A stretch of DNA of 64,000 bases, taken from contig JBBAAS010000002.1 of the NCBI GenBank assembly GCA_041658125.1, forward strand, positions 8,951 through 72,950, given 5' to 3'. A program made the position numbers and the translations under genes. How positions within the stretch are numbered: the stretch's first letter is position 1; each line of letters begins with the position of its first letter. Below, one piece after another: positions 6,686-59,477 of this stretch. Origin of the DNA: Candidatus Shapirobacteria bacterium (GTDB lineage: Bacteria; Patescibacteriota; Microgenomatia; UBA12405). The notes beneath the pieces were generated by a model, which worked only from the letters and a program-made list of their open reading frames with translations, ran no database searches and was not told the origin of the DNA.

Positions 6686-6770
6686 GGAGGGTGGGCAGGA
6701 TGGTAATGCGCTGGTTTCGAAAACCAGTGTCCGCAAGGACTAACAGGTTCGACTCCTGTACCCTCCGCCA
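6686..6770 (+). tRNA. tRNA-Ser (anticodon CGA), CCA encoded
   Basis: Perfect 7-bp acceptor stem GGAGGGT/ACCCTCC with discriminator G. Anticodon stem CTGGT/ACCAG with loop TTCGAAA. Long variable arm with GTCC-GCAA-GGAC. T arm CAGG-TTCGACT-CCTG. Confidence 0.85.
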
Positions 6771-6848
6771 ACTGGGAAAAGCGGGCGAATTCAGCAAAAT
6801 TCGCCAGCCAATATTGCCCTGAAATCCGAAATTTTTATCTTTTAAAAC
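6765..6848. repeat. IR-A left copy (84 bp), overlaps the last 6 nt of tRNA-Ser
   Basis: Exact reverse complement of 8226-8309 by direct base-by-base comparison. It contains an internal hairpin GGCGAATT-CAGCAA-AATTCGCC. Confidence 0.9.
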
Positions 6849-7073
6849 GAAGTTCGAGCCGATATTTTTTAAGAAACTCCTAAATTCATAAGGATTGTTT
6901 TTCTTCAATAACATTTTGGCTTGGCTGGCGGATAAAATCATTTCTTTCACAAGTTCGAGCCAATTATTTCCTTTTGATTCAAAATCTTTTAAACCCTGCT
7001 CGATGACAGCTTGTTGATTGATAAACAAATTTTTCTTGGTAAGGTATTGTCGGTTGTCAATTAAGTTGTCGAG

Positions 7074-8201
7074 TCAGAAATTTAGCAGGTCGTCGAGTTT
7101 CCGATTGATTTCCACTTTTTGGGATAAAAGATTTTGAATCAATGGTTGAGACTGATTTTTAGCTTGATTGGTTTCTTTGTCCAACTCTACCAACATCTTT
7201 TTTACCCAGTCTTTAGGCAAAGAAACTTTTTGAATTTTGATTTTGATTTGGTTGATCAATTCTTCCTCTCGCAAATATTTTTCGGGACAATTACCTTTCT
7301 TTTTGGTACAACGATAATAGTTGTGGCCTTTTTGAGTTTCGGCAGTAATTAAGCAACCACAGCCACCACACCTCATTAGTCCCGAAAAAATAAACTCGTG
7401 TTTACGTTTTCGTTGTTTTTTGCCACGGTTACTCATCACCTCTGCTACTAAATCAAAAAGTTTCTTAGAAATAATTGGCTCATGAACTCCTTTGTATAAT
7501 TCACCATTGAATCGAATCAGTCCGTAATAAATTGGATTTTGCAACATAAATTGGACACGGGATTCAGATAAAGTTTTATCCTTGTAACTTTTAAGGTTTG
7601 ACTTAGCGAAAAATCCGGCAATACCTTTCAGGGTACAATCTCCCGATGAGTACATTTCAAATGCCTTTTTAATTAACTTTGCCTTGGGTATATCAATATC
7701 AATTCCTTTGGTTTTACGATTATTGATGTAGCCTATCGGTGCAAAAGACGGCCACAAACCATTCTTTAATTTTTGTCTAATTCCTCGCCGGATATTTTCG
7801 CTTAAATTGTCAACATAATATTTACTCTGACCAAAGGCAATATTTAACATAAACTTTCCCTGTGGAGTTGAGTCAAACCAAAAAGTGGGAAACTTTAAAT
7901 CAAGAATTTTCCCCGTGTCCAATAAATAAATGATTTTTCCGCCATCAATAGAATTTCTTGCCAATCTATCAGGGTGCCATGCAACAATGCCCTGCGCTTC
8001 GCCCTTTTCCATTCTTTCAATCATTTGATTAAAAACAATCCTTCCTGGTTTCTTGGCAGTTTTTGCCTCGGTAAACGAGGCAACGATTTCAATTTTTTGA
8101 ATTGTGGCAAATTCTTTTAATTCAGCAATTTGATCGCCAATACTTTTGATTTGTCTTTCCTCACTGTCAGTTGATTTTCTAGCGTATAAAAAGTATTTCA
8201 T
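7074..8201 (-). CDS. Large serine recombinase (resolvase/integrase family)
   Basis: 375 aa. N-terminal YARKSTDSEE...DRLARN serine-recombinase catalytic motifs. Recombinase domain and a zinc ribbon CGGCGC...YYRC...C, followed by a C-terminal coiled coil. Confidence 0.85.
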   Translation of the reverse strand: MKYFLYARKSTDSEERQIKSIGDQIAELKEFATIQKIEIVASFTEAKTAKKPGRIVFNQMIERMEKGEAQGIVAWHPDRLARNSIDGGKIIYLLDTGKILDLKFPTFWFDSTPQGKFMLNIAFGQSKYYVDNLSENIRRGIRQKLKNGLWPSFAPIGYINNRKTKGIDIDIPKAKLIKKAFEMYSSGDCTLKGIAGFFAKSNLKSYKDKTLSESRVQFMLQNPIYYGLIRFNGELYKGVHEPIISKKLFDLVAEVMSNRGKKQRKRKHEFIFSGLMRCGGCGCLITAETQKGHNYYRCTKKKGNCPEKYLREEELINQIKIKIQKVSLPKDWVKKMLVELDKETNQAKNQSQPLIQNLLSQKVEINRKLDDLLNF

Positions 8202-8225
8202 TTTTTTAAGCCCGCATTTGGCCTT

Positions 8226-8309
8226 GTTTTAAAAGATAAAAATTTCGGATTTCAGGGCAATATTGGCTGGCGAATTTTGCTGAATTCGCCCGCTTTTCCC
8301 AGTTGGCGG
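8226..8309. repeat. IR-A right copy (84 bp)
   Basis: Reverse complement of 6765-6848. It abuts IR-B and overlaps it by 4 nt. Confidence 0.9.
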
Positions 8310-8424
8310 TGTGCATTCGAAAAAATTCGAACAGAATTTTTAAATTTATAATGACGGGCGAGGTCGCCCCCACCCGACCTGCCCGCCGTGGTGGGACTGC
8401 CCGCAAAAAACAGAGGATTTCAAT
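8306..8424. repeat. IR-B left copy (119 bp) with GC-rich structured core
   Basis: Reverse complement of 13398-13516 with one mismatch at 8412. The core at 8356-8404 contains the hairpin GGGCG-AGGT-CGCCC, the dyad CCCACC...GGTGGG and a tandem CTGCCCGC. Confidence 0.9.
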
Positions 8425-8496
8425 AAAACTGCCAAAATATCGGCTCAAACTTCTTTCGGGCCAAATGCGGGCCTTTGAAAAAATTAATATTCCACT

Positions 8497-8766
8497 TTGG
8501 CATATTACATTATGGAATATATGATAGTAATTATCAAGATGATGGATAAAACGATATTTACCAGAGAACATAAGCTACTTACCAAACTACTTAGACAAGC
8601 CCGAATAGACGCGGGTTTGGATCAAATCCAGGTCGCAAAACTTTTGAAAAAAACTCAATCCTATGTATCAAAAATCGAATCAGGCCAAAGAAGAATTGAT
8701 ATTATTCAACTTAAAGAATTCGCCAGAATCTATAAGAAAAACATTAATTATTTTTTAGATAAATAG
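8497..8766 (+). CDS. XRE-family HTH regulator (R-M controller C-protein-like)
   Basis: HTH_XRE signature QIQVAKLLKKTQSYVSKIESGQRRID. A likely start at MMDKTIF gives about 75 aa. It ends 3 nt before the next ORF, which is the typical C-R arrangement. Confidence 0.6.
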   Translation: MAYYIMEYMIVIIKMMDKTIFTREHKLLTKLLRQARIDAGLDQIQVAKLLKKTQSYVSKIESGQRRIDIIQLKEFARIYKKNINYFLDK

Positions 8767-8768
8767 AT

Positions 8769-9608
8769 ATGGATACCCTTTTAACGAAAAAAGATGCAAT
8801 AAAATTGATTGGTTTAGATTCAAAAACTTTTGATAACTACTTTCGAAATGCCGATGAATTTACCAGTCAAAAGAGAATTAATGGTAAAGGTAGATTTTTA
8901 TTCAGTAAAAGTTTGCTTGATAAATGGCTAACTAGTTATGAGTGGAGAACAATTGAACTTACCTACGATGATTATGTGTTGTGTTTAGATTTCGCGTTGG
9001 CTCAGCATTTTCGAGGATATGTTCTATCTGATTGGGGTACTGCCAGACAAAGAGAATTTGGTCAAAAAATTACCAATTGGATAAAGGGTCAATTGGCCGA
9101 AGTAGCAGTAAAAAAATTTTTTAAGAGGGAATTTAACGCTGATATCGAGCTCGATTTTGGAATTCACAAGAATATCGTACCTCAAGATATTATCAGCGTA
9201 TCCATAAATGGATCAAAAAGATTACCCAGGGTTGGTATCGGTATTAAGGCCTCAAAACCAAAAAGTTCATATTTAGTTTTGGGAGAAAATGAAATAATTA
9301 TTTCAGAAAGAAGATCTGACTATTATATTTTTTGCAGGCCGGATATCCCCGATGACCATCTACTTAGACTGACTAAAGAAAAAATAACCAAAATTGTTAG
9401 TCAGCAACCCCATTTTGATAAATATAAAGATGATATTCCAAGTTTCGAAAATATATTCTGTGAGATTAGCGGGTGGTGCGGAGTTGATGAACTTGAAAGG
9501 GTTACAAGTATTCCAGGTCAAGATTTTACGGGGGTTAGGTATGTTAAAAAATCCGGACACTTACACAAAAATAAATCAGATTGGCAGAGATTAATCGACA
9601 AACTTTAA
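8769..9608 (+). CDS. Putative restriction endonuclease with N-terminal excisionase-like (HTH_17) domain
   Basis: N-terminus LLTKKDAIKLIGLDSKTFDNYF...INGKGRFLFSKSLLDKWL fits the HTH_17 pattern. It is convergent with the C5-MTase and directly downstream of the C-protein. The REase assignment is inference from context. Confidence 0.35.
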   Translation: MDTLLTKKDAIKLIGLDSKTFDNYFRNADEFTSQKRINGKGRFLFSKSLLDKWLTSYEWRTIELTYDDYVLCLDFALAQHFRGYVLSDWGTARQREFGQKITNWIKGQLAEVAVKKFFKREFNADIELDFGIHKNIVPQDIISVSINGSKRLPRVGIGIKASKPKSSYLVLGENEIIISERRSDYYIFCRPDIPDDHLLRLTKEKITKIVSQQPHFDKYKDDIPSFENIFCEISGWCGVDELERVTSIPGQDFTGVRYVKKSGHLHKNKSDWQRLIDKL

Positions 9609-9612
9609 AGAC

Positions 9613-10725
9613 CTAAAAAAGTGATTTTTGTCCGTTGCCATTTCCATTGGTCAGTTTTGGTAGCACCCATTCGTAGGGTATTTTGGCAAATGTTTTTAAG
9701 ACAGCTTCTACTATGACTTTTGCACCTTTCGGCGGCACTGCCATTCCGATTTGCTTCCTCACACTTTCCTTTGAACCTTCAAACACAAAATCATCAGGAA
9801 AAGTTTGTATCCTTGCTCTTTCTCTATTAGTCAACGCTCTGTTTTCATTCCAATGATATACATGCGTTCCTCCTCCACCGCTACCGGTAATAGTATACGA
9901 TGGTTTGTCTGGATGGAGTCGACGATATATCTGACTCATCCTAGCACCTTTTACATTTAATCTAAGATATTCTGGAATACCTTCATACCATGCGTTTTCT
10001 CCCGGGGGAATATATTTTAATCTTTCGATGACTAGTTTACCTTGTCTTGTAGTTTCATGGTTTGGAGCACTTGGACTAATTGGAGGGCTTTCAATGGCCT
10101 CTTTTGCTGTCAAGTATTTATTTACGGTTATCGGCTTCGGTACCTTAAACTTAAGTCCTAAATCCTTTCTGATACCTACAATTACCACCCTGTGTCTTGT
10201 TTGAGGTACACCATATTCTTCAAATTTATAAAGATGAGCGGTTATTGTATACCCCTTACCTGCATTTTCTAAATCCTCAAGAATTTTTATAAAAGAGTTT
10301 CCATCGTTAGCACTTTGTATACCACTCACATTTTCAGCCATAAACCACTGTGGATTGCGAATATTAATAGCTTTTAATCCATAGGTATATAAAGGACCGT
10401 ATTTCCCATTGAATCCTTTCTGCTCACCGACAACACTAAAGTCATTACAAGGGAAACCAAAGGCTAGGACGTCAAAATCAGGAACATTATTAAAATCAAT
10501 AGTTTCTACAGGAGCGCAAACAACTTTTGAGGAGGAATCATTATGGTGAATGTTGCGAGCATACGTTTTACAAGTGCTTTCATCTATATCATTGGACCAA
10601 ACTGGTTTGACTTGGATAAGCTTCCCGAACCGATCAATTACTTGAGCTTGTGTTGCACCTAGAGATAACCCCCCTGGACCACAAAACAACTCTGCAAGTT
10701 TGAATGTTTGAGTATTTTTTTTCAT
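9613..10725 (-). CDS. DNA (cytosine-5)-methyltransferase
   Basis: Motif I FCGPGGLSLG, motif IV GFPCNDFS, motif VI ENV, QTRHR. The start is set at MKKNTQ, whose ATG forms an ATGA overlap with the vsr stop. The track ORF extends to 10800. Confidence 0.9.
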   Translation of the reverse strand: MKKNTQTFKLAELFCGPGGLSLGATQAQVIDRFGKLIQVKPVWSNDIDESTCKTYARNIHHNDSSSKVVCAPVETIDFNNVPDFDVLAFGFPCNDFSVVGEQKGFNGKYGPLYTYGLKAINIRNPQWFMAENVSGIQSANDGNSFIKILEDLENAGKGYTITAHLYKFEEYGVPQTRHRVVIVGIRKDLGLKFKVPKPITVNKYLTAKEAIESPPISPSAPNHETTRQGKLVIERLKYIPPGENAWYEGIPEYLRLNVKGARMSQIYRRLHPDKPSYTITGSGGGGTHVYHWNENRALTNRERARIQTFPDDFVFEGSKESVRKQIGMAVPPKGAKVIVEAVLKTFAKIPYEWVLPKLTNGNGNGQKSLF

Positions 10726-11123
10726 AGTAACTTTTTTAGTCTTTTTATTAAATCCCCCTCTTCTCTTGTTTGACATTCCCAAATTATAGACGTTTTCCAT
10801 CCCAATCTTCTTAAATCTGTTATGGCTAGTCTTTGCAGTAGTAGATTTTTCTGAAGTTTTTCTTTCCAGTAAACTTTATTTGTTTTTGGAACTACACTCT
10901 TTTTACATCCTTTATGTTGATGCCAAAAACAACCGTTGATGAAAAGTGCGGTTTTGATCTTCGATATCACAATGTCCGGTTTGCCGGGTAATTTATTATT
11001 ATGAAGACGATACCTCATTCCCAAACTTGTTAGCATCTTTCTGGTAATTACTTCCGGTTTTGTATGCTTACTCCTAATTCTGGACATACAAAAACTTCGT
11101 TGTTTCTCTGTTAAATCATCCAT
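10722..11123 (-). CDS. vsr: Very-short-patch repair endonuclease Vsr
   Basis: 133 aa. SRIRSKHTKPE...LPGKPDIV...ALFINGCFWHQHKGC...PKTN..YW..K...N..RD...LGWKTSIIWECQ matches the Vsr signature. Confidence 0.85.
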   Translation of the reverse strand: MDDLTEKQRSFCMSRIRSKHTKPEVITRKMLTSLGMRYRLHNNKLPGKPDIVISKIKTALFINGCFWHQHKGCKKSVVPKTNKVYWKEKLQKNLLLQRLAITDLRRLGWKTSIIWECQTREEGDLIKRLKKLL

Positions 11124-11164
11124 CTTTTGTTATTTTGTCTAAGATTACTATTTTTAATTTTTGG

Positions 11165-11776
11165 TTAGAAAATGTTTGGATTGTATGTAAATACACTTTT
11201 TACAATTCCTTCTATACGAAAATCGGATGAAGCAATAAAAGTAGGAAATTTTTGATTAAATGAAGTGAGCAATATTTGTTTATCAAAGTGTTGATATTTT
11301 TTTATTAGCACTTCTTCATTATTAACACATACAATGATGTCTCCGTTATTAGCTTTGTTTGATTTTTTTGCTATTACTAAATCACCCGGATTTATTTTTG
11401 GTTTCATGGATTCACCTTTAGCTTTAACCATAAAGGCATCTGTTGATGAAAATCCTAGAATTTTACTCGAAATAGGTATTTGATCAATCGGGTTTCCGTC
11501 TAAAATCGATCCGTTTGGCCCACACTGAGCCATTCCATAAAGATTTAAATAAGTGATCAACTTTTCTGGTGTGTCACCGATAATTTGATAATCTTTTGAA
11601 TTACCGGGGTTTCTTCTCAAATATCCTAATTTTTCCAATTGAGTAATGTGGTGAAACACAACGCTTGGTGAGGATGCTCCCAGTTCTTCCTGAAGTTCTC
11701 TCATTGTGAGAGGGTTTAGTTGATATTTCTTAAGCAGTTGTAATAACTTTTGTTGGACAGGATGGATGTTTTTCAT
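11165..11776 (-). CDS. LexA/CI-like S24 peptidase repressor
   Basis: N-terminal winged-HTH (SVVFHHITQLEKLGYLRR) and a C-terminal S24 domain with GESM serine and a downstream Lys (KAKGESMKPKINPGDLVIAKK). It is divergent from the NTase operon. Confidence 0.8.
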   Translation of the reverse strand: MKNIHPVQQKLLQLLKKYQLNPLTMRELQEELGASSPSVVFHHITQLEKLGYLRRNPGNSKDYQIIGDTPEKLITYLNLYGMAQCGPNGSILDGNPIDQIPISSKILGFSSTDAFMVKAKGESMKPKINPGDLVIAKKSNKANNGDIIVCVNNEEVLIKKYQHFDKQILLTSFNQKFPTFIASSDFRIEGIVKSVFTYNPNIF

Positions 11777-11811
11777 TTATATATAACCATTTTAATCTAT
11801 ACTTTTTACCA

Positions 11812-11853
11812 TGTCAAGAACTTGTTGACTTGTTCTACTATTTGTTCTACAAT
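11812..11853. promoter_or_regulatory. Back-to-back divergent promoters overlaid with GAAC/GTTC-type repeats (putative operator)
   Basis: Plus-strand TTGACT (11825-11830), 17-bp spacer, TACAAT (11848-11853). On the minus strand, TTGACA (rc of 11812-11817), 17-bp spacer, TAAAAT. The inverted pair AGAAC (11817-21) / GTTCT (11832-36) and three direct TTGTT[CG] repeats (11822, 11831, 11843) overlie both -35 boxes and the spacer. Confidence 0.5.
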
Positions 11854-11881
11854 GGTGTTATTTAATAAAACAATTAATAAT

Positions 11882-12664
11882 ATGGATTCTGAAAATTATT
11901 TGCTTCAAATTTTACAAAAATATCAAGCTCGAGATCTATCAAATAGTTCTCCCGCTATATCTCAGTTATTTAGTGTACTTAGGACTTGGGCTAATACTGG
12001 ATTTATCGATTTAGTTATTTCTGGATCACGGGCAAAAGGAACGGCTATATCTTTAGCCTCTGACGTTGATTATCTGGTATCCCTGACAAATGGCTGTGAT
12101 GAGAATAATGGAGGTCTAGAGTATATCTATAATTCTCTTTTCAATACGCTCAATACCACCTATCAAAATGTTCGCAAACAAAATGTTTCCATAAGAATAA
12201 ATTTGTCAGGTCTAGAAATAGACGTAACTCCTGCTAGAAAACAACCTGGAAACACAAATGATCATAGTTTGTTTGTTTCTAAACAAGGAACATGGAAAAA
12301 GACAAATATTCAAAAACACATTACCGATATATCTCAGTCTGGAAGAATTAACGAAATTAAATTAGTAAAAATTTGGAGAGAGCTAAATAAACTTGACTTT
12401 CCGTCGATATATTTGGAATATTTACTGGTAGATGTCGTGTTGTCTGGTAAATCCAAAGGTGATAACAATATTGCAACTAATTTTCTTTTTGCTCTTTCAG
12501 AACTTGGCAGGAGTACAAACAATCCATTACTTACTAGAGTAGTCGATCCGGCTAATTCTACTAATATACTCTCTGATTTACTGACAAGTAGTGAAAAAAA
12601 CTTAATTATTAATAAAGCAAGAGAGTCATCCCAAAAATCAAATTGGGGTTATATCGTATGGTAA
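11882..12664 (+). CDS. Pol-beta superfamily nucleotidyltransferase, CD-NTase/SMODS-like
   Basis: GSRAKGTAISLASDVDYLV fits the GS-x(n)-DxD motif, and LEIDVTPA gives a third acidic residue in an h[DE]hhPA context as in cGAS/DncV/OAS-type NTases. The length is 260 aa. The start is chosen downstream of the mapped promoter; the track ORF starts at 11750. Confidence 0.6.
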   Translation: MDSENYLLQILQKYQARDLSNSSPAISQLFSVLRTWANTGFIDLVISGSRAKGTAISLASDVDYLVSLTNGCDENNGGLEYIYNSLFNTLNTTYQNVRKQNVSIRINLSGLEIDVTPARKQPGNTNDHSLFVSKQGTWKKTNIQKHITDISQSGRINEIKLVKIWRELNKLDFPSIYLEYLLVDVVLSGKSKGDNNIATNFLFALSELGRSTNNPLLTRVVDPANSTNILSDLLTSSEKNLIINKARESSQKSNWGYIVW

Positions 12665-13380
12665 AAAATATAAACAATAAAATTGATATGAAGAAATTAT
12701 TTTCTGCTCTAGACGAAGAGATGAGCCTGAAATTGTCCAGTAAGATTGACGAGATACATCACCCTGTGGCTAAAGGTAATGAGACCGAACTAAATTGGAT
12801 AGGACTATTGAAAAAGTATCTTCCAGAGAGATATAAGGTAGATAGTGGGTTTGTTGTTGACCATGAGGGAAGTTTTAGTGACCAGATTGATTTAATCATT
12901 TATGACCGGCATTTTACTCCGTTTATATTCCGTGGTGAGAATGTTGCCTATATACCCGCCGAAGGGGTGTACGCGGTTTTTGAAATCAAACCAGATTTGA
13001 ATAAGACCTATTACGACTATGCTGTAAAAAAACTTAATAGCGTTAAGGGATTAAAAAGAACTTCCTCAAATTTCACTCATATCATGGGGAATAGTAAGAA
13101 AGATCCGTCTGAGATAAGCGGAGGTATATTAACTAAAAAAATTAGTAGTCAAAAATTTTTTAATGGTTTAAAAACTGGAGAAGAACTATCATTTGTCTTA
13201 TGTCTCGATTGTGGTGTGAAAATTATTGGTCAGGATAAAATTGAGATACAGATCAATAAACCAATATTAGCCTTCTTCTTGCTAAAACTAATTGAAAAAC
13301 TACGATCGATGGGGTCTGTATCGGCATTAGACGTCGACAGTTATTTGGAACAAGTAAGAGATAAGCCCGAAGTCAAATAG
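12658..13380 (+). CDS. PD-(D/E)xK (Mrr-cat/NucC-like) nuclease-fold protein, putative effector
   Basis: ELNWIGLLKKYL...SDQIDLIIYD...VYAVFEIKP matches the D...ExK restriction-endonuclease-like core. Its ATG at 12658 overlaps the NTase stop (ATGGTAA), which indicates translational coupling. Confidence 0.45.
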   Translation: MVKNINNKIDMKKLFSALDEEMSLKLSSKIDEIHHPVAKGNETELNWIGLLKKYLPERYKVDSGFVVDHEGSFSDQIDLIIYDRHFTPFIFRGENVAYIPAEGVYAVFEIKPDLNKTYYDYAVKKLNSVKGLKRTSSNFTHIMGNSKKDPSEISGGILTKKISSQKFFNGLKTGEELSFVLCLDCGVKIIGQDKIEIQINKPILAFFLLKLIEKLRSMGSVSALDVDSYLEQVRDKPEVK

Positions 13381-13397
13381 GAGAATTTGCCACAAAA

Positions 13398-13516
13398 ATT
13401 GAAATCCTCCGTTTTTTGCGGGCAGTCCCACCACGGCGGGCAGGTCGGGTGGGGGCGACCTCGCCCGTCATTATAAATTTAAAAATTCTGTTCGAATTTT
13501 TTCGAATGCACACCGC
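13398..13516. repeat. IR-B right copy (119 bp)
   Basis: Reverse complement of 8306-8424 (118 of 119 identical). Confidence 0.9.
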
Positions 13517-13552
13517 AGTCCGTCTGATATGTATAAAATTGTAGAATAGCTT

Positions 13553-14173
13553 ATGAAACAACTTTTTTTGACATCGAGCGGCGATTATGTGATGGATGAT
13601 ATTGTTAAAAAATTACCTAAAAAACCAAGTGAGTTGAATTTGGCTTTTATCAATACGGCGGCCGAGGTAGAAGAGGGCGATCATTGGTGGGTTTTGGCTG
13701 AAAAAAAGAAATTAGTAGAAGTGGGTTTTAAGGTCGATGAATTTTCAATTAAAGGAATGACGAAAGAAGAAATTGAAAATAAATTAAAGAATAAACAGAT
13801 TATTTATTTTTGCGGGGGAAATACCTTTTATTTACTGGACCAAGTGATAAAAACCGGCTGTGACGAGATTATTACTAGGAAAATTAACGAAGGAGTAATT
13901 TATATGGGATCCAGCGCCGGGTCGATGATTGTCGGAACGAGAATTGATTTGATGTCTACGATTGACGAGAAGTCAAAAGCGCCGGATTTAAAGTCGACTG
14001 GCTTAAATATTGTCGACCTGTCAATTTTACCCCACTGGGGTAATGATACTTTTAAAGAGGGATATTGTGGTGATTTTCAATCGATGTATACCGAAGGAGT
14101 GAAAATAATTTCCCTAACTAATCAACAGTATGTTTGGATAAAAGACGATTCGATGCAAATAATTCAAGTTTAG
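13553..14173 (+). CDS. Peptidase S51 family (peptidase E / cyanophycinase-like)
   Basis: N-terminus MKQLFLTSSG, plus GGNTF and GSSAGS motifs. Confidence 0.7.
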   Translation: MKQLFLTSSGDYVMDDIVKKLPKKPSELNLAFINTAAEVEEGDHWWVLAEKKKLVEVGFKVDEFSIKGMTKEEIENKLKNKQIIYFCGGNTFYLLDQVIKTGCDEIITRKINEGVIYMGSSAGSMIVGTRIDLMSTIDEKSKAPDLKSTGLNIVDLSILPHWGNDTFKEGYCGDFQSMYTEGVKIISLTNQQYVWIKDDSMQIIQV

Positions 14174-14215
14174 AATTATAAAAACTGATTAGCTTTGGGG
14201 TTATCAACTCCGTAA

Positions 14216-14719
14216 CTAGATTATTAACACCGCTTCTTTTCTATCATTTAATTTAAAACCAGCTTTAAGATGAGCTTTTATGGAATTTGGGTTATCTGTA
14301 TTAATTAAACTCCAAATCTTTTTGATATTATTTTTTTTAGCAATTTCAATAAGGTTTTTGTAAAGAAGAACGCCAATTCCCTTCCCCTGCCAGGAGGGAT
14401 CAATGGCAAGATATTCACAATAGATTTCTTGAGATATAGGAACGGTCTCAAAGGCCAAAATAAATCCTATTATTTTATTTTCCGACTCGATCAGCAAACT
14501 GTAACCTGACTTTACAAAACCGTCGAAATTAGGTTGTCGACATACGAGATGGGTTTCTTTCTCTGCCAAAATAAATTCATCCCATTTTTTCTGGCCTAAG
14601 TATTGAATTTGAGTGAGTATGTCGATCTCCCTAATTGAGGAATAATCGTCAGAAGTTATGGGTCTAATAAAATAATCAGCCATATTACCAGCTCCTTTTT
14701 CCAATGGTAATGTTTCCAT
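14216..14719 (-). CDS. GNAT family N-acetyltransferase
   Basis: Sequence ...QGKGIGVLLYKNLIEIAKKNNIKKIW... contains an acetyl-CoA binding Q/RxxGxG/A motif. Confidence 0.6.
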   Translation of the reverse strand: METLPLEKGAGNMADYFIRPITSDDYSSIREIDILTQIQYLGQKKWDEFILAEKETHLVCRQPNFDGFVKSGYSLLIESENKIIGFILAFETVPISQEIYCEYLAIDPSWQGKGIGVLLYKNLIEIAKKNNIKKIWSLINTDNPNSIKAHLKAGFKLNDRKEAVLII

Positions 14720-50398: not shown

Positions 50399-51115
50399 AT
50401 GCCGATTGACCCATTAAAAATAGCTATCAGAGGGAGTACTCAAGACCATTTGCCGGTGGAGGATGTGATTAATGGAATCGTTCTATTAAAAGACGGTTCG
50501 GCAGCAATGATAATGCAGGTATCGTCGGTTAATTTCGACTTGTTGTCAGAAAGAGAACAATCGGCTCTGGTTTTTGCTTATGGAGGAATATTAAATTCTT
50601 TGAGCTTCCCAATACAAATTGTGATTCAAACGAACAGAAAAGATGTAAGTGCCTATTTGCAAAATCTAAAAACTGCCGAAGAAGAACAGGAAAATAAACT
50701 TTTAGGAGAGAAAATAAAGAGTTACCGAAAATTTATTGAAGAAACAGTAAAAAGAAATGACGTGCTATCAAAATCTTTTTATGTAGTGGTCCCGTTTTCG
50801 ATCTTAGAATTAGGGATTAAGACGGCATCGAGCCAATTAACAAGTAGCCTGCCGCTATTGGGAAGACAAACGGAAAGATCGCTGCCCTTTCCAAAGGAAC
50901 AAATTTTAGAAAAAGCTAAAGCCAGTTTGGAACCCAAAAGAGACCATTTGATGAGGCTGTTTTCCAGATTGGGATTGGAAATAAAACAATTAGATACAAA
51001 AGAAATGATTGAATTGTTTTACCGACTGTACAATGAAGAAACTGCTATTAATCAAAAGATTTCGAATTTGAGTTATGGAACGCCAGCGGTGATGGCAAAA
51101 ATTAAAAAAACATGA
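50399..51115 (+). CDS. VirB4-like N-terminal domain fragment (split gene or frameshift)
   Basis: DVINGIVLLKDGSAAMIMQVSSVNFDLLSEREQ resembles the VirB4/CagE N-terminal region. Its stop overlaps the next ORF start (ATGA) right after an A7 tract. Confidence 0.45.
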   Translation: MPIDPLKIAIRGSTQDHLPVEDVINGIVLLKDGSAAMIMQVSSVNFDLLSEREQSALVFAYGGILNSLSFPIQIVIQTNRKDVSAYLQNLKTAEEEQENKLLGEKIKSYRKFIEETVKRNDVLSKSFYVVVPFSILELGIKTASSQLTSSLPLLGRQTERSLPFPKEQILEKAKASLEPKRDHLMRLFSRLGLEIKQLDTKEMIELFYRLYNEETAINQKISNLSYGTPAVMAKIKKT

Positions 51116-53469
51116 AAATATTTAGTTTTGGCAAAAAAAAAGAAGAGATAAAAAAGACAGAGACACCGGTAACGGCGGACAATAAATTGACTGGAGCTAA
51201 AAAATTTGTTGAGGGATTGGTTTCGACGAAGGACATTATTGCCCCGGCGGCACTGGAAGTTGATTTTAACCACATAAGGATTGGTAACCGGTACTATAGA
51301 ACATTGTTTGTAGCCGGATATCCAAGATTTGTGGGAATAAATTGGCTGTCACCACTGGTTAATTTTGACGCGTCACTGAACGTGTCGATGTATATTTATC
51401 CGACGGACGGAAAAGAAATTCTAGATGATTTAAGAAGAAAGATTGCGGAAATGGAGGCTGAAATTAACACTGATTTACAGAGAGGGAGAGTGGTAAATCC
51501 GGCAACACAGGCAAAGCTGGAAGATGCTTTGAATTTACAAGCAGAATTGGTGAGGGGAGAGGAGAGATTTTTTCAATTTGGACTTTATGTAACGATATCG
51601 ACTGATTCGGAAGAAGAATTAGATAGAATCAATAAAAATATTGAAGCGGCGTTGGGATCGTTGATGATAATCAGTAAAAGAGCAACATTGCAAATGGAAG
51701 ATGGCTTTGTAACGACTCTGCCATTGTGTATAGACAGATTGGGAATCACCAGAAATATGGATACGACGTCACTGGCAACAACTTTTCCGTTTGTGTCATC
51801 GGATTTATCTGACGATAAGGGGATAATGTATGGAATTAATGAACACAACGGAAGCTTGGTAATTTTTGATAGATTTTCAATGCCGAATTATAATTCGGTA
51901 GTATTTGCCACGGCCGGAGCGGGAAAATCGTATTTGATTAAGCTGGAAGCAATAAGATCGCTGATGATGGGGACAGAAATCATTGTAATTGATCCGGAAA
52001 ACGAGTACCGAAACTTGAGCGACGCAGTGGGAGGACAATATATTGCGTTTGGGTATGGTGAAGAGTCAAAAATTAATCCATTTGATTTGTCATTAACGGA
52101 AGAAGAAGGAGAAAATGCTCTGAATGCAAAAATGTTGAATTTACATGGTTTGCTCAAGGTGATGCTGGGAGAAATGAACCCAATGGAAGAATCTATTATG
52201 GATAAAGCATTGATGGAGGCTTATAAGGCAAAAGGAATTACTCCTGACCCAACGACCCAAAATAAAGAACCGCCATTAATCGAAGATTTATATAAGTCGT
52301 TGATGGGAATGGAAGATAAGTCGGCACAAACATTAGCAGCACGAATGGAAAAATATATAAAAGGTTCCTTTGCCGGAATTTTTAACCAAAAAACAACCGT
52401 AAATTTAAAAAACAAAATGGTGGTGTTCGGCATCAGAAATCTGGAAGAAGCCTTAAGACCAATAGCGATGCATATTATTCTTGACTATATTTGGACGGTA
52501 GTGAAAAAAACCCTAAAAAAAAGAATAATGATTGTGGATGAGGCGTGGTATTTGATGCAGTTTCCGGATTCGGCGGCATTTTTGAGAGGAATTGTAAAAA
52601 GAAGCAGAAAATATTATTTGGGAGTAACAACAATTACCCAAGATGTGGATGATTTTTTAAAGACGCCGTACGGAAAAGAAATTGTGACCAACAGTGCAAT
52701 TCAAATTCTTTTAAAACAACACAGTGCGGCAATAGACCAAATAGGAGAGGTGTTTTACCTGTCAGAAGGAGAGAAACAGTTATTATTAACCGCTGATAAG
52801 GGGGAAGGAATATTTTTTGCCGGACAAAACCACGTAGCGATTAGGGTGATTGCCTCGGCAGATGAGCATAAACTGATCACCTCAAACCCAGAAGAAGTGA
52901 TGCAAATGAAAAAGACGGTGGAAGAAAAAAAGAAAGAACCGGAAAAACCAATGACAGTGGCAGAACCACCAAAGCCGATTTTGGTTAATAAACCTATAAC
53001 TGAAAATAGTAATCAAGTAGTAGAAATTGAAAGTGGTCCGGTATTAAACGCCATTTCCCCGAAGGTAGAAGATGTATTGCAAAAACGGATAAAAGAAATG
53101 GAAGAACAGGAGAAAAAAGAAATTGAAGAGCACAGGAAGGAAGTTGAGGTTGAAGAGAAAGAAAAAGAAAGTAAAAATCAATCTTTGGGCGGTTTTGGAT
53201 CTTTACCGAAATATCAGGATTTATTTAAGCCAACGGCAAACAAATTACCTCCCTTGCCCCCACTGCCGCCATTACCAAAATACGAACCGGTAATAAAGCC
53301 GATATTTATTACCCCCGAACCAAAAATTCCGCAACCACCGCAATTGGTTAAGAAAAATAAACCTGAATTTGTGGCACCAGAGCAAAACAAAACCGTGGCA
53401 TCACAAGCTCCAGCGGATAAAAAAACCGGACTAACCTACGACAAACTATTTGGCGACGGAATCGTTTAG
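51112..53469 (+). CDS. virB4: Type IV secretion ATPase VirB4/TraE family with Pro/Lys/Glu-rich C-terminal tail
   Basis: Walker A ATAGAGKSYL and Walker B IMIVDEAW. The upstream YYRTLFVAGYP region is VirB4-like. The tail carries PPLPPLPPLP repeats. Confidence 0.75.
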   Translation: MKIFSFGKKKEEIKKTETPVTADNKLTGAKKFVEGLVSTKDIIAPAALEVDFNHIRIGNRYYRTLFVAGYPRFVGINWLSPLVNFDASLNVSMYIYPTDGKEILDDLRRKIAEMEAEINTDLQRGRVVNPATQAKLEDALNLQAELVRGEERFFQFGLYVTISTDSEEELDRINKNIEAALGSLMIISKRATLQMEDGFVTTLPLCIDRLGITRNMDTTSLATTFPFVSSDLSDDKGIMYGINEHNGSLVIFDRFSMPNYNSVVFATAGAGKSYLIKLEAIRSLMMGTEIIVIDPENEYRNLSDAVGGQYIAFGYGEESKINPFDLSLTEEEGENALNAKMLNLHGLLKVMLGEMNPMEESIMDKALMEAYKAKGITPDPTTQNKEPPLIEDLYKSLMGMEDKSAQTLAARMEKYIKGSFAGIFNQKTTVNLKNKMVVFGIRNLEEALRPIAMHIILDYIWTVVKKTLKKRIMIVDEAWYLMQFPDSAAFLRGIVKRSRKYYLGVTTITQDVDDFLKTPYGKEIVTNSAIQILLKQHSAAIDQIGEVFYLSEGEKQLLLTADKGEGIFFAGQNHVAIRVIASADEHKLITSNPEEVMQMKKTVEEKKKEPEKPMTVAEPPKPILVNKPITENSNQVVEIESGPVLNAISPKVEDVLQKRIKEMEEQEKKEIEEHRKEVEVEEKEKESKNQSLGGFGSLPKYQDLFKPTANKLPPLPPLPPLPKYEPVIKPIFITPEPKIPQPPQLVKKNKPEFVAPEQNKTVASQAPADKKTGLTYDKLFGDGIV

Positions 53470-53485
53470 ATTGGTATAATTTCAA

Positions 53486-56218
53486 TTGATGGATCAGATT
53501 TTAACCAAAGAAGAAACAGTAATACAGGAGATAAATTCGAGAGACTGCCGAACAGTAAATGAAGTCATTAAAGCCCTGGGTGAATTAATTGCTAATCACG
53601 GAAAACTGATAAAAGGAAGACTGGAAGATAGAATTTTCCAAGTATATCTGGCGATAGGAGCCAGAGAAGATTTTGATGTAACCCAACCATTGACGGAAAT
53701 GGTAAAAACGCTGGATCGTTTGGACGATAAAACAAAAACAGAAAAAATTGAAGATTTGTCTAAACAAGTTAAAGAAAAGATAGATGAAGCATTGAAGGAC
53801 AAACCTTCAGAAGAAATAAAATTGGGGTCAAAACAGTTGACCAGAGATGAACTAAGAGTGCTGATAAGAGAATATGAAGAACATTTAATTAAAGAAAATG
53901 GAAATAAAGAAAAAGCAATGGCGAGGCTGGTGGAAGGAAACGCAAGAGGAAAAAAGAGCGCAGAAATAATCGCGAGATTAGAGGAAATAAAAATAGAAAT
54001 CAAAGAAAACGGGCTGGCCGAAAATAAGATTGAAAAAATGGCCATAGATTTAGTGATAGAAGAAAATTTATTGGTAGCTGAACTGAAAGAGAAATTGCCT
54101 GACGAAAAAGCTGAAGCAATTTCAAAAATGACAACAGAGGTGACGATGAATGAAATAGTAAAAGGAATAGGAGAAATTAATAAAGAAGAAGTGACAGGGC
54201 AAGTGTTAAAAAAAGTAAAAGAGATAGATATTCAAAAAAATGATCTAGAGACCATCGAAGAATTGGTGATAGAGGAAGTGATAGGGAGAGTAGCGGAAAA
54301 GAAAATAGAGATTGAGGCAAATAAGGTTGCAGTGGAAATGTTAAAAAGACTGAAAGATGAAGGAATAGTAATCTCCGAAAGAAAAGTTGATGAAAATAAT
54401 TTAACAGAAAGAATTGAAACTCAAATATCGGAAGTTTGGAAAGGAAAAAGAGAATCGCTTTCCGAAAGCCTAGTAGTAGAAGTGGCTAATGCCAGTAAGG
54501 TTAATGACGAAAATTCCTTACTTAGAATAAGTCAGATAGTAAAGGAAGGAGAAATACAGATAAGAGAGCACACTAGAAATAATTTTGCCTTGAGACAAGA
54601 AGCTAAAATGGCGGAATTGAGAGGAGAAATTATAGAGACAGTAAACAAGGCCGATTCGACAATAAGCCCAGCAGTTGTAAGAGAATACGGTCGACTAGTA
54701 AGTAGTTTTTATCGAGTACCCTTAAGTGAGTATCAGAAAAGTGCGGTAGAAAGCGTAGAAAAAGTTCATGGACCGGGAAAAGCAAAGGTGGCTTGGGGAT
54801 ATACGGAAGCTTATTTGGGAATGTTAACCGACCCAAATATCGTTCAAAACACTGAAAAACTGAATAAGATTCTTGATAAATATCCACAATTTGAAGGCAT
54901 GGTTAATGGAATTGAAAAAGCCAGAACAGTTAATGGATTAGCGAGAACTCTTCAAAAGAGTGAAGTAATGCAGGGGCTTTTAGGTTCTCAAAAATTCGCT
55001 CAAATAACAGGTTTTATAGATAATCCGTTTGGATATTTCGGACAAAAATTATTAACAAGCGAAGGAGTAAAGGCGTTTATCGGAAAAATTGGCGGTCAAG
55101 AGTTGGTGACCGGATTGACAAATATTTTTTCTAAAGGCGGAGGGACAGCAGAAATGTTGATGGCGGCAGGAAAATCGATTCTAGCTAAGTTAGGAGGAAC
55201 AGCGGCAACAACAGCTGTCGCAGGAGGAGCGGCAACAGCCGGAGGAACGGCAATAGCGGCGGCGACAGGGCCACCAGGGTGGATTGCTGCGGCGGCGATA
55301 GCAGTAATAAGCGTAGCAAAAAAGATATTTGGGAAAATAAAAGATTTATTTGGAGGTTTATTTGAAAGTTTAGGAATTGACAAAAAAGCCTTGGATTTGT
55401 TTGGCGGACTTAAAAGTTGGATGCGAAATAATTTAGGAGGAATATTTGGAAAAGCGGGAGAGGCGTTATTAGGAGTAGCTGAAATGCCATTGCAATTAGT
55501 CGAAATGTTGTCGATGGTAGCAATAGGAACCGTGGTGGCGTTAATAGTACCGCTGTTTTTTATTGGTTTTTTTGTTTATCAAATGTTGCAATCAAATCAA
55601 GTTTCAACGTTAGTCCCGCCGGTGGGGATGGGAGCCGGTGAAGAAGGAACATCTTCGACGATTCCGCCGTATTTATTAACTGATTGTATGAGCAGTCCGG
55701 CATGCGCCGTAATCGATTATCTTCGATATAAAAAAGGAATTACTAATGTGAATACGGGGAACGTAAACCAAGCGGCAAGTTATGTCCAAGAATGGGTGAA
55801 TCCACCGGTAGGATTTGACAAAGGATATTTTAATACAATAATGACGGCAAATACTGCCAGTTGGACTTATTTTCAATGTTTAGGATTTAGTTTTAGTATT
55901 GATAAAGAACTGGCAAGTTTAGGGGAAGAAATTGACGGATTAGTAGATGAAAATGATAGTACTCCCGGATGTGAACCGGTGACGATTGAAAATGCAGGAG
56001 CCGGTGATCATATAATGTACATGGGACCACATATTTTAGAATTATCAGTATTCAGGCCTGACGATGGAAGTGGAATAATTTCGGATGTTAACGGAGACAG
56101 GCAAGGTATGTTGAGAAATATGCACAAGGGGGCGAATGGAAGCGGTGACAGTATAAGAGATTTTTTGATCAGTAAAAAAAATCAGTATTCTCGGTTTAAA
56201 ATATTAAGATGCAGATGA
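53486..56218 (+). CDS. Large membrane protein with coiled-coil N-terminus, Gly/Ala-rich TM region and C-terminal CHAP-like peptidoglycan hydrolase domain
   Basis: The C-terminus carries WTYFQCLGFSF (Cys) and GDHIMYMGPHILEL (His) in a CHAP-like arrangement. This architecture is typical of T4SS-associated cell-wall hydrolases in monoderm conjugation systems. Confidence 0.5.
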   Translation: MMDQILTKEETVIQEINSRDCRTVNEVIKALGELIANHGKLIKGRLEDRIFQVYLAIGAREDFDVTQPLTEMVKTLDRLDDKTKTEKIEDLSKQVKEKIDEALKDKPSEEIKLGSKQLTRDELRVLIREYEEHLIKENGNKEKAMARLVEGNARGKKSAEIIARLEEIKIEIKENGLAENKIEKMAIDLVIEENLLVAELKEKLPDEKAEAISKMTTEVTMNEIVKGIGEINKEEVTGQVLKKVKEIDIQKNDLETIEELVIEEVIGRVAEKKIEIEANKVAVEMLKRLKDEGIVISERKVDENNLTERIETQISEVWKGKRESLSESLVVEVANASKVNDENSLLRISQIVKEGEIQIREHTRNNFALRQEAKMAELRGEIIETVNKADSTISPAVVREYGRLVSSFYRVPLSEYQKSAVESVEKVHGPGKAKVAWGYTEAYLGMLTDPNIVQNTEKLNKILDKYPQFEGMVNGIEKARTVNGLARTLQKSEVMQGLLGSQKFAQITGFIDNPFGYFGQKLLTSEGVKAFIGKIGGQELVTGLTNIFSKGGGTAEMLMAAGKSILAKLGGTAATTAVAGGAATAGGTAIAAATGPPGWIAAAAIAVISVAKKIFGKIKDLFGGLFESLGIDKKALDLFGGLKSWMRNNLGGIFGKAGEALLGVAEMPLQLVEMLSMVAIGTVVALIVPLFFIGFFVYQMLQSNQVSTLVPPVGMGAGEEGTSSTIPPYLLTDCMSSPACAVIDYLRYKKGITNVNTGNVNQAASYVQEWVNPPVGFDKGYFNTIMTANTASWTYFQCLGFSFSIDKELASLGEEIDGLVDENDSTPGCEPVTIENAGAGDHIMYMGPHILELSVFRPDDGSGIISDVNGDRQGMLRNMHKGANGSGDSIRDFLISKKNQYSRFKILRCR

Positions 56219-58130: not shown

Positions 58131-59477
58131 TTAAAAAGAGCGCCTGATTTGGTCGACAAGTTGACGAAGAGAAGAATTGACGGCCAAATCAGAGTGAATT
58201 TTGTCACGGGCGTGCATAATGCTGGTATGGTCGCGACCGCCTAAAAGACGGCCAACTTCTTCTAAAGGAAGATTGATTTCGGTGAGAAGAAGGTAGGCGG
58301 TTAAGTGGCGAGCGAAAACCAAGTCTTTTTTACGACTTTTGCCGCAAAGCTCGCTAGTTTTAAGATCAAAGTGTTTGGCACAAAGAGAAATAATATGCCT
58401 AGGAGTAAGGTTGGTAGGAGAAAGATGGTTTTGACCGGAAGAGGACAAGGGATTGAGGTAGTTTTGCACAAAAGCCAAATCGATCTCCTCTACCCTACCG
58501 GATTGAGCTTTAATGGCGATCTGTTGGATATTACCTTCAATGTCGCGAATATTGGATTGGATATTTTCAGCTAAAAAGGTGACAGCCGGAGGTTGAAGTT
58601 TGAGTCCATAAACTTCTGCTTTTTGAGTGATAATGGCGCAGCGCATTTCATAATCAGGGGGTTGAATATCGACGGTAAGGCCGCCCATAAAACGGGAAAC
58701 CAGGCGATCTTCGAGATTTTGGATATCAGAGGGCTTACGGTCGGAAGTTAAGATGACCTGCCGACCGGACATGTGAAGAGCGTTAAAGGTATGAAAAAAT
58801 TCCTGTTGAATGTATTCTTTACCGGCGATAAACTGGACGTCATCAACCAGAATGCAATCAAGCTGGCGGTAACGGTCTTTGAAGAGATTCATATTTTTGG
58901 ATTTGAGGGCGGCGATTAAATCATTACCAAAGGTTTCGGCCGGAAAATACTTGATTTTAAGGGCAGAATTGTTTTTAAGTAATTCATGGCCGATGGCTTG
59001 CATAAGATGAGTTTTACCGACACCGACGCCGCCCCAAATAAAAAAGGGATTGTAGGTAGAGCCGGGGTTTTTGATGATACCTTGAGCGGCGGCAAAGGCA
59101 AAATTATTACTATTACCCACAATAAAATTTTCAAGGGTATAACGGGGATGAAGGTTGGGAGAGTAAGTTGATTTTGGGGAAAAATTAAGAAGAGGGGCGG
59201 AGAAGTTTTGGTTTTCGGTCTTGATGAGATCTTGGACAATAAAAGAAATAGAATTGTTAGTTTTAGTTTGATTGTCGAGAGCACTTTTGAAGAGGTGGTA
59301 ATAGCGTTTTTGGTTGATATCAGCTAGATAAGAGTTGGGGCAAGCAATAGTAGCGGCACTATCTTTGAAAATTATTAATTGGGTTTTAGAAACAAAGGTT
59401 TGAAAGACGGCCGGAGCCAAAACAATCTTGAGCTCTTCCTGGGCATTTTTCCAAAGTCTGTCGATATCCATGAACAA
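58131..59477 (-). CDS. dnaA: Chromosomal replication initiator DnaA
   Basis: AAA+ Walker A GGVGVGKTHL and the C-terminal DNA-binding domain signature. 448 aa. Confidence 0.9.
   Translation of the reverse strand: MFMDIDRLWKNAQEELKIVLAPAVFQTFVSKTQLIIFKDSAATIACPNSYLADINQKRYYHLFKSALDNQTKTNNSISFIVQDLIKTENQNFSAPLLNFSPKSTYSPNLHPRYTLENFIVGNSNNFAFAAAQGIIKNPGSTYNPFFIWGGVGVGKTHLMQAIGHELLKNNSALKIKYFPAETFGNDLIAALKSKNMNLFKDRYRQLDCILVDDVQFIAGKEYIQQEFFHTFNALHMSGRQVILTSDRKPSDIQNLEDRLVSRFMGGLTVDIQPPDYEMRCAIITQKAEVYGLKLQPPAVTFLAENIQSNIRDIEGNIQQIAIKAQSGRVEEIDLAFVQNYLNPLSSSGQNHLSPTNLTPRHIISLCAKHFDLKTSELCGKSRKKDLVFARHLTAYLLLTEINLPLEEVGRLLGGRDHTSIMHARDKIHSDLAVNSSLRQLVDQIRRSF

Follow-up and report, generated by a model that had tools for sequence, protein, structure and literature searches.

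The 105-bp gap between a LexA-like gene and a divergently transcribed CBASS operon in a Candidatus Shapirobacteria genome raises the question of whether the neighboring repressor controls both genes from this gap and, if so, whether it acts as the SOS regulator of the host or as a regulator belonging to the defence cassette. The initial annotation, made from the sequence of a 64-kb stretch of DNA (the window), had proposed two back-to-back sigma70-like promoters overlaid by GAAC/GTTC-type repeats, with an autoregulating repressor that also silences the NTase operon, and had left the choice between a host and a cassette-private regulator open. To answer this question, the promoters and repeats were checked base by base, the flanking genes were compared with protein family and structure databases, and the upstream regions of homologous genes were compared across phyla.

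Promoters and repeats in the intergenic region

A consensus scan of positions 10500-14500 found only two promoter-like sites with at least 10 of 12 matches, and both are located in the gap. The minus-strand promoter (TTGACA-17-TAAAAT) scored 11/12 and the plus-strand promoter (TTGACT-17-TACAAT) scored 10/12, with the two -35 hexamers 7 bp apart. The total number of promoter-like hits in this region was not above that in shuffled sequences, so that the strength of these two sites is what counts. The use of the sigma70 consensus in Patescibacteria is inferred here from conservation. The coordinates of the features are collected in the table.

Table. Features of the control region and its surroundings (window coordinates).
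Feature	Coordinates	Strand	Remarks
Shared control region	11777-11881		105 bp; start codon of the repressor (CAT on the + strand) at 11774-11776
LexA-like repressor gene	11165-11776	-	203 aa
-35 of the repressor's own promoter, TTGACA	11812-11817	-	TTG in 35/39 and TTGAC in 28/39 aligned homolog sites
-10 of the repressor's own promoter, TAAAAT	11789-11794	-	TAnnnT 16-18 bp from the -35 in 34/39 homolog sites; ends 12 nt before the ATG, so the mRNA is nearly leaderless
Half-site C, AGAAC on + (GTTCT on the repressor strand)	11817-11821		shares one base with the repressor's own -35
-35 of the cargo (CBASS) promoter, TTGACT	11825-11830	+	between half-sites C and B; TTGACT in 20/39 and TTG in 32/39 homolog sites at the same position
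Half-site B, TGTTCTA on + (TAGAACA on the repressor strand)	11831-11837		inside the cargo promoter spacer
Half-site A, TGTTCTA	11843-11849		last two bases are the first two of the cargo -10
-10 of the cargo promoter, TACAAT	11848-11853	+	TAnnnT at this position in 32/39 homolog sites
CBASS CD-NTase (SMODS cyclase)	11882-12664	+	260 aa; PADLOC Cyclase PDLC00803 E 4e-81, full model covered from the ATG at 11882; Pfam SMODS
NucC-like nuclease effector (DUF6602)	12688-13380	+	alternative TTG start at 12643; PADLOC Effector/NucC E 8e-73; Pfam DUF6602 E 9e-32
Vsr (10722-11123) and C5 DNA methyltransferase (9613-10800)	9613-11123	-	co-directional with the repressor gene, starting 41 bp after it; probably in the same operon
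HTH controller-like protein (8497-8766) and type II restriction endonuclease (8769-9608)	8497-9608	+
Island at the 3' end of tRNA-Ser	6765-13516		6.75 kb
Inverted repeats bracketing a large serine recombinase (7074-8201, -)	6765-6848 / 8226-8309
Inverted repeats bracketing the R-M + repressor + CBASS cassette	8306-8441 / 13381-13516

The inverted pair AGAAC (11817-11821) and GTTCT (11832-11836) noted in the initial annotation is present, with the cores N10 apart, but is not significant on its own, with 1 found against 1.9 expected at up to 1 mismatch. The direct repeat is really a 12-bp tandem, TTGTTCTAC(T/A)AT repeated twice, reported by a repeat search as a single direct family, TTGTTCTACTAT / TTGTTCTACAAT, at 11830 and 11842. 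TGTTCTA-N5-TGTTCTA occurs once in 64 kb against 0.02 expected, and the only two exact copies of TTGTTCTAC in the window are these two. The initial annotation counted three direct TTGTT[CG] repeats, but the first of these, TTGTTG (11822-11827), although it exists in the sequence, falls in the variable spacer plus the cargo -35 and is not conserved. The Gram-positive box GAAC-N4-GTTC is not present in the region, and its matches in the whole window are below the chance expectation. No structured RNA was found in the gap by a search of Rfam, which gave only tRNAs in the window.

Conservation of the operator upstream of the LexA-like gene

The repressor gene product carries an N-terminal LexA-type winged-helix DNA-binding domain (Pfam LexA_DNA_bind, PF01726, E 4e-8, residues 1-60) and an S24 peptidase domain (Peptidase_S24, PF00717, E 6e-21). 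It aligns over its full length to the NCBIfam LexA equivalog TIGR00498 but scores below the curated cut-off (94.9 against 110.95 bits). Cys85-Gly86, Ser123 and Lys159 are invariant in an alignment of 35 homologs. These residues align with the scissile Ala-Gly, the catalytic Ser in GESM and the catalytic Lys of T. maritima LexA (3k2z), which is the best PDB sequence match (E 7e-12). An AlphaFold2 model (pLDDT 82.6) matched full-length LexA structures first, with full-length Foldseek alignments to 3k2z, 3jsp and 1jhh; the matches include the DNA complex 3jsp and the RecA complex 8trg. The self-cleavage apparatus is thus intact in sequence, although RecA dependence is assumed from family membership only.

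The protein is 100% identical to a Candidatus Shapirobacteria MAG protein and has over 1,000 homolog clusters, the best 120 of which are 62-85% identical. A scan of one genome per species returned 202 stretches among 185,579 species representatives, which is a lower bound, and 80 loci were kept. Besides many Patescibacteria, these come from Bacteroidota, Gamma- and Alphaproteobacteria, Planctomycetia, Margulisbacteria, Omnitrophota, Elusimicrobia, Spirochaetes and others, and all are 53-67% identical to the window protein. The protein is 55-85% identical among members from many phyla, yet only about 27% identical to canonical LexA.

Comparison with over 130 homologous loci defines the operator, read on the repressor's strand, as TAGAACA-N5-TAGAACA-N9-GTTCT, that is, two direct half-sites and one inverted. 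When the upstream regions were laid out against the start codon, 48 of 73 contained TAGAACA-N5-TAGAACA-N8-11-GTTCT with at most two mismatches and in the same register relative to both promoters, the last spacer being N9 in 40 of them. About a third of family members have variant or unrecognised operators. From 39 distinct sites the consensus is A...TAGAACAaA.a.TAGAACAagtCAA.a.GTTCTTGac, followed about 17 bp later by ta.aat, and the information content peaks on the three half-sites and on both sets of promoter hexamers. In a close relative, the 81%-identical L002, the own-promoter spacer has diverged while the half-sites and hexamers are intact, and homology among the window, L002 and another close relative, L001, stops exactly at the outer edge of half-site A. 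Bacteroidota members keep the half-sites but have no TTGACA, possibly reflecting a different promoter type in that phylum. The half-sites and not the hexamers are the constant element. In three loci (L009, L077 and L090) the module is flipped or rearranged relative to the gene but keeps the half-site set. A link between changes in the recognition helix and half-site variants was also sought: Rickettsiales members have TSTS with TAGATCA or TAGCACA, two Flavobacteria have ASTS with TAGAATA, and one member has KSPS with TAGTACA. This is only suggestive, as there are too few cases.

The operator is almost never found away from the gene. No further copy was found in the 64-kb window, and in 804 kb of locus and window sequence every good match but two lies upstream of a LexA-like gene. 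In a scan of metagenome contigs with the DNA pattern alone, 54 of 66 sites had a LexA-like gene starting 34-109 nt downstream, and three more had the gene flipped or cut by the contig end, so that 57 of 66 abut such a gene. A phage-borne GTAGAACA array was also recovered in six loci (L086, L097, L135 and L152-L154), but no LexA-like gene was found nearby and it was treated as unrelated or unknown.

Variable cargo beside the repressor

In the window the plus-strand cargo is a two-gene CBASS, as only the CD-NTase and NucC genes lie between the operator and the right inverted repeat of the island; no ancillary Cap2/Cap3 or HORMA/TRIP13 genes are present. The cyclase scores below the NCBIfam CBASS_cyclase cut-offs. 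Elsewhere the cargo varies from locus to locus: the first divergent genes of 52 loci fall into 36 sequence clusters and the second genes of 41 loci into 33 clusters. Recognised families include CBASS cyclases with AGS-C, 1TM/2TM effectors and STING-TIR, Pycsar cyclase and PycTM, TIR/ThsB, Shedu SduA, AIPR, caspase, Gabija-, Lamassu- or Septu-like ATPases, and multiubiquitin/ThiF sets. In contrast, the gene directly downstream of the repressor and co-directional with it is much less varied, and at least 28 of 48 are DNA methyltransferases or Vsr. In the window no minus-strand terminator was called between these genes, and the endonuclease beyond them is convergent. Six other loci share the whole repressor-Vsr-Dcm-endonuclease-HTH backbone with the window at 58-77% amino-acid identity, whereas none of 84 loci has a relative of the window's CD-NTase or NucC. 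The double inverted-repeat layout of the island recurs in other loci.

Interpretation and relation to known regulators

These results support the initial reading of an autoregulating S24 repressor whose operator overlies two divergent promoters, with the correction that the operator has two direct TGTTCTA units and one inverted AGAAC. The region is best explained as the bidirectional promoter-operator of a horizontally mobile LexA-family repressor, in which the repressor gene, its promoter and the operator travel together as one module and different anti-phage cargo operons are plugged in on the A side. We hold this explanation with reasonable confidence, on the strength of phylogenetic footprinting and not of experiment. 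It is inferred that repressor dimers occupy the half-sites, although the stoichiometry is unresolved, since A-B is a direct repeat with a 12-bp period and B-C an inverted repeat with a 14-15 bp core spacing. As two sites lie in the core of the CBASS promoter and one at the upstream edge of the repressor's -35, the cargo should be shut off more tightly than the repressor-Vsr-Dcm operon. It is further inferred that RecA-ssDNA filaments formed during DNA damage or phage infection trigger self-cleavage at Cys85-Gly86 by Ser123/Lys159, so that the DNA-binding domain leaves the operator and both promoters are derepressed. The frequent methyltransferase downstream of the repressor is not explained by a pure defence switch.

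The possibility that the protein is the host's own SOS LexA, with CBASS as one regulon member that happens to sit next to lexA, draws on its full-length LexA architecture, on the name 'repressor LexA' given to several homologs by JGI, and on the resemblance of the GAAC/GTTC cores to Gram-positive and alphaproteobacterial SOS boxes (GTTC-N7-GTTC in PMC8565304). However, this appears unlikely given the score below the equivalog cut-off, the identity of only 26-30% to canonical LexA against 55-67% among Patescibacteria, Bacteroidota, Proteobacteria, Planctomycetia, Margulisbacteria, Omnitrophota and others, the sporadic occurrence, two paralogs in one MAG (L012 and L027), neighbors that are R-M and defence genes instead of repair genes, the near absence of the operator away from the gene in the sequence scanned, and the location in a recombinase-bearing island at a tRNA gene. 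No recA or uvrA was found among the ten largest ORFs of the window, and as only 64 kb of this genome could be scanned, a genome-wide regulon cannot be excluded; the evidence nevertheless leans clearly to a private and mobile regulator. That the repeats are chance or merely promoter-associated sequence could be argued from the lack of significance of the inverted pair alone and of promoter-like hits as a class, but the tandem pair occurs once against 0.02 expected, and this reading is effectively refuted by the conservation of three half-sites in register across dozens of loci from different phyla while flanks and spacers diverge.

It is also possible, though doubtful, that the repressor mainly maintains an integrative element, as lambda CI or SXT SetR do, with the defence genes as passengers under the 'early' promoter. 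The island with its serine recombinase and long inverted repeats, the recurrence of similar elements, and the way S24 repressors of prophages and ICEs work would fit this. On the other hand, the genes facing the operator are defence effectors and not excision, replication or transfer genes, a recombinase homolog lies within the fetched flanks in only 18 of 138 loci, the N-terminal domain is not of CI/XRE type, and the family is nearly absent from viral collections. There was 1 hit in IMG/VR, and GenBank phages and PLSDB plasmids gave only canonical LexA or CI, at 25-31% identity over most of the length for LexA and under 31% overall, apart from one partial C-terminal match at 39%. Similarly unlikely is a role mainly as a controller of the restriction-modification genes, setting methyltransferase levels as C-proteins do. 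The many downstream methyltransferases and the repressor-Vsr-Dcm-REase-C block conserved in 7 loci speak for it, but two of the three half-sites sit in the core of the cargo promoter, a separate HTH controller already precedes the endonuclease, and about 40% of loci have no methyltransferase directly downstream.

More tentatively, the module could represent a previously undescribed class of immune-operon regulator: a mobile repressor carrying its own three-half-site operator and bidirectional promoter as a socket into which unrelated abortive-infection systems (CBASS, Pycsar, TIR, STING, Shedu and others) are swapped across more than ten phyla, while the other arm expresses the repressor together with a restriction-modification methyltransferase. 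It would tie cell-killing defences directly to the RecA* signal, would gain a second input through DnaA boxes in part of the family, and would often ride in a serine-recombinase element built from two abutting inverted-repeat-bracketed segments. No description of it was found in the literature that could be searched, although some overlap with earlier work on the Patescibacteria SOS network (PMID 28618189) cannot be excluded. Because the repressor, operator and promoters are conserved while the cargo changes, the operator motif can serve as a genomic flag for new defence genes in uncultured lineages such as Patescibacteria. The module would also be a ready-made inducible bidirectional promoter. 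A LexA paralog that appears to have left the SOS regulon for a mobile element also bears on how LexA binding motifs diversify.

Compared with canonical LexA of E. coli and T. maritima (3k2z), the protein has the same two-domain fold, by prediction, a Ser/Lys dyad, a cleavage site in the linker and an operator in its own promoter, but is about 22-27% identical, has a Cys-Gly cleavage site, probably as in UmuD, instead of Ala-Gly, and is mobile, sporadic and paired with defence cargo and methyltransferases. The B-C unit, best written AGAACA-N8-TGTTCT, has the hexamer-N8-hexamer layout of the E. coli SOS box (probably TACTGT-N8-ACAGTA), but the operator has an extra direct repeat, and no SOS regulon was detectable in the sequence scanned. 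The alphaproteobacterial LexA box is a direct repeat of the same GTTC/GAAC core, but the spacing here is GTTC-N8-GTTC (12-bp period against 11) with a third inverted half-site; the Gram-positive Cheo box shares the core tetranucleotide, but no N4-spaced pair is present. Phage CI and ICE SetR are self-cleaving S24 repressors on mobile elements that control divergent promoters, but they have a CI/XRE-type HTH, whereas the N-terminal domain here hits LexA_DNA_bind and the MarR/ArsR-type wHTH families and not HTH_3, and the genes controlled are not lytic or transfer genes.

Toxic abortive-infection systems must be kept silent until they are needed, and three regulator classes linking them to DNA damage have been described: CapH/CapP, CapW and CapK/CapS (bioRxiv 10.1101/2022.04.27.489752; PMC11662680; PMC13373217). 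In each, a repressor gene is placed divergently from variable immune operons of many unrelated defence systems, and expression is thought to rise on DNA damage. None of those papers mentions LexA or S24 regulators, and the protein families are unrelated, being HTH plus metallopeptidase, wHTH-WYL-WCX, and kinase plus repressor, respectively. The protein described here has no WYL domain, and there is no metallopeptidase gene in the cassette. The locus points to a fourth and simpler solution, in which a single LexA-family polypeptide could read the RecA* signal directly and would cleave itself.

Regulatory sequences and genes next to the LexA-like gene

The -10 element of the repressor's own promoter ends only 12 nt before its ATG and no Shine-Dalgarno sequence is visible; the mRNA would be nearly leaderless. 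Upstream of the LexA-like start in the homologous loci (designated here by L followed by a number), a further element was found. DnaA-box 9-mers (TTATCCACA, with up to 1 mismatch) occurred within 130 nt of the start in 22 of 69 loci, as compared with 2.45 on average in random windows. The boxes sit at two fixed positions, one in the -35/-10 spacer and the other 11-12 nt before the start codon. Examples were found in L003, L014, L037 and L041, and, just before the ATG, in L040, L044, L048 and L078. In contrast, the boxes are absent from the window's own region. They may be a second regulatory input.

The gene directly after the repressor and co-directional with it was a DNA methyltransferase or Vsr in at least 28 of 48 loci, the methyltransferases being of the Eco57I/N6, C5, N4/N6 and D12 types; this link between a LexA-like repressor and a methyltransferase is unexplained. 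One Patescibacteria MAG carries two different family members (L012 and L027, on contigs JBDRHZ010000012.1 and JBDRHZ010000021.1), 66% and 60% identical to the query, each having its own operator and neighbours. Farther along the window, a TraG-like P-loop ATPase is followed by a 910-aa ORF with no Pfam hit, and the position of dnaA indicates that the window is probably near the replication origin.

Coordinates of the features in the window and in the homologous or pattern-matched loci
Feature	Sequence	Position
tRNA-Ser	window	6686-6770
84-nt inverted-repeat pair	window	6765-6848 / 8226-8309
Large serine recombinase	window	7074-8201
136-nt inverted-repeat pair	window	8306-8441 / 13381-13516
Region of the methyltransferase/Vsr genes downstream of the LexA-like gene	window	9613-11123
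Region between the repressor's -10 and its ATG, with the -10	window	11777-11794
TraG-like P-loop ATPase	window	51112-53469
910-aa ORF	window	53486-56218
dnaA	window	58131-59477
DnaA box	L003	5950-5960
GTAGAACA/GTTCTAC copies and iterons	L152	11380-11560
Tandem AGAACA-N8-TGTTCT palindromes	L117	70-200
AGAACA-N8-TGTTCT palindrome	L132	near 1052-1084

Half-site-like sequences with no LexA-like gene found nearby

A different region is conserved among six loci (L086, L097, L135, L152, L153 and L154), three of which are viral contigs. It carries five GTAGAACA/GTTCTAC copies followed by repeated cgtttaccgttttcttaa iterons, and no LexA-like gene lies in the DNA retrieved for these loci. The region could be a phage origin or control region that uses the same half-site. 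In addition, AGAACA-N8-TGTTCT palindromes, in tandem in the case of L117, were found in L117 and L132 without a LexA-like gene on the contig, and these hint that the inverted B-C unit of the operator can stand alone.

Inverted repeats around the cassette and the recombinase

The cassette carrying the R-M genes, the repressor and CBASS lies in a 6.75-kb island at the 3' end of tRNA-Ser. A perfect inverted-repeat pair of 84 nt brackets the large serine recombinase, and an abutting pair of 136 nt brackets the cassette. The three junctions share a CCGC(C) core and read as attL, an inverted complete attP, and attR, which is what a circle with two inverted attP sites would give after integration. 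The same architecture recurs among the homologs. Inverted repeats of 117-335 nt at 94-100% identity bracket the LexA-like cassette in 9 distinct loci of 115 tested (L003, L018, L048, L073, L074, L077, L122, L126 and L148), and in three of them, L073, L122 and L148, a second abutting inverted-repeat pair brackets a serine recombinase, while in L100, L106 and L129 the recombinase-bracketing pair alone was seen. This looks like a composite mobile or invertible element that has not been described.
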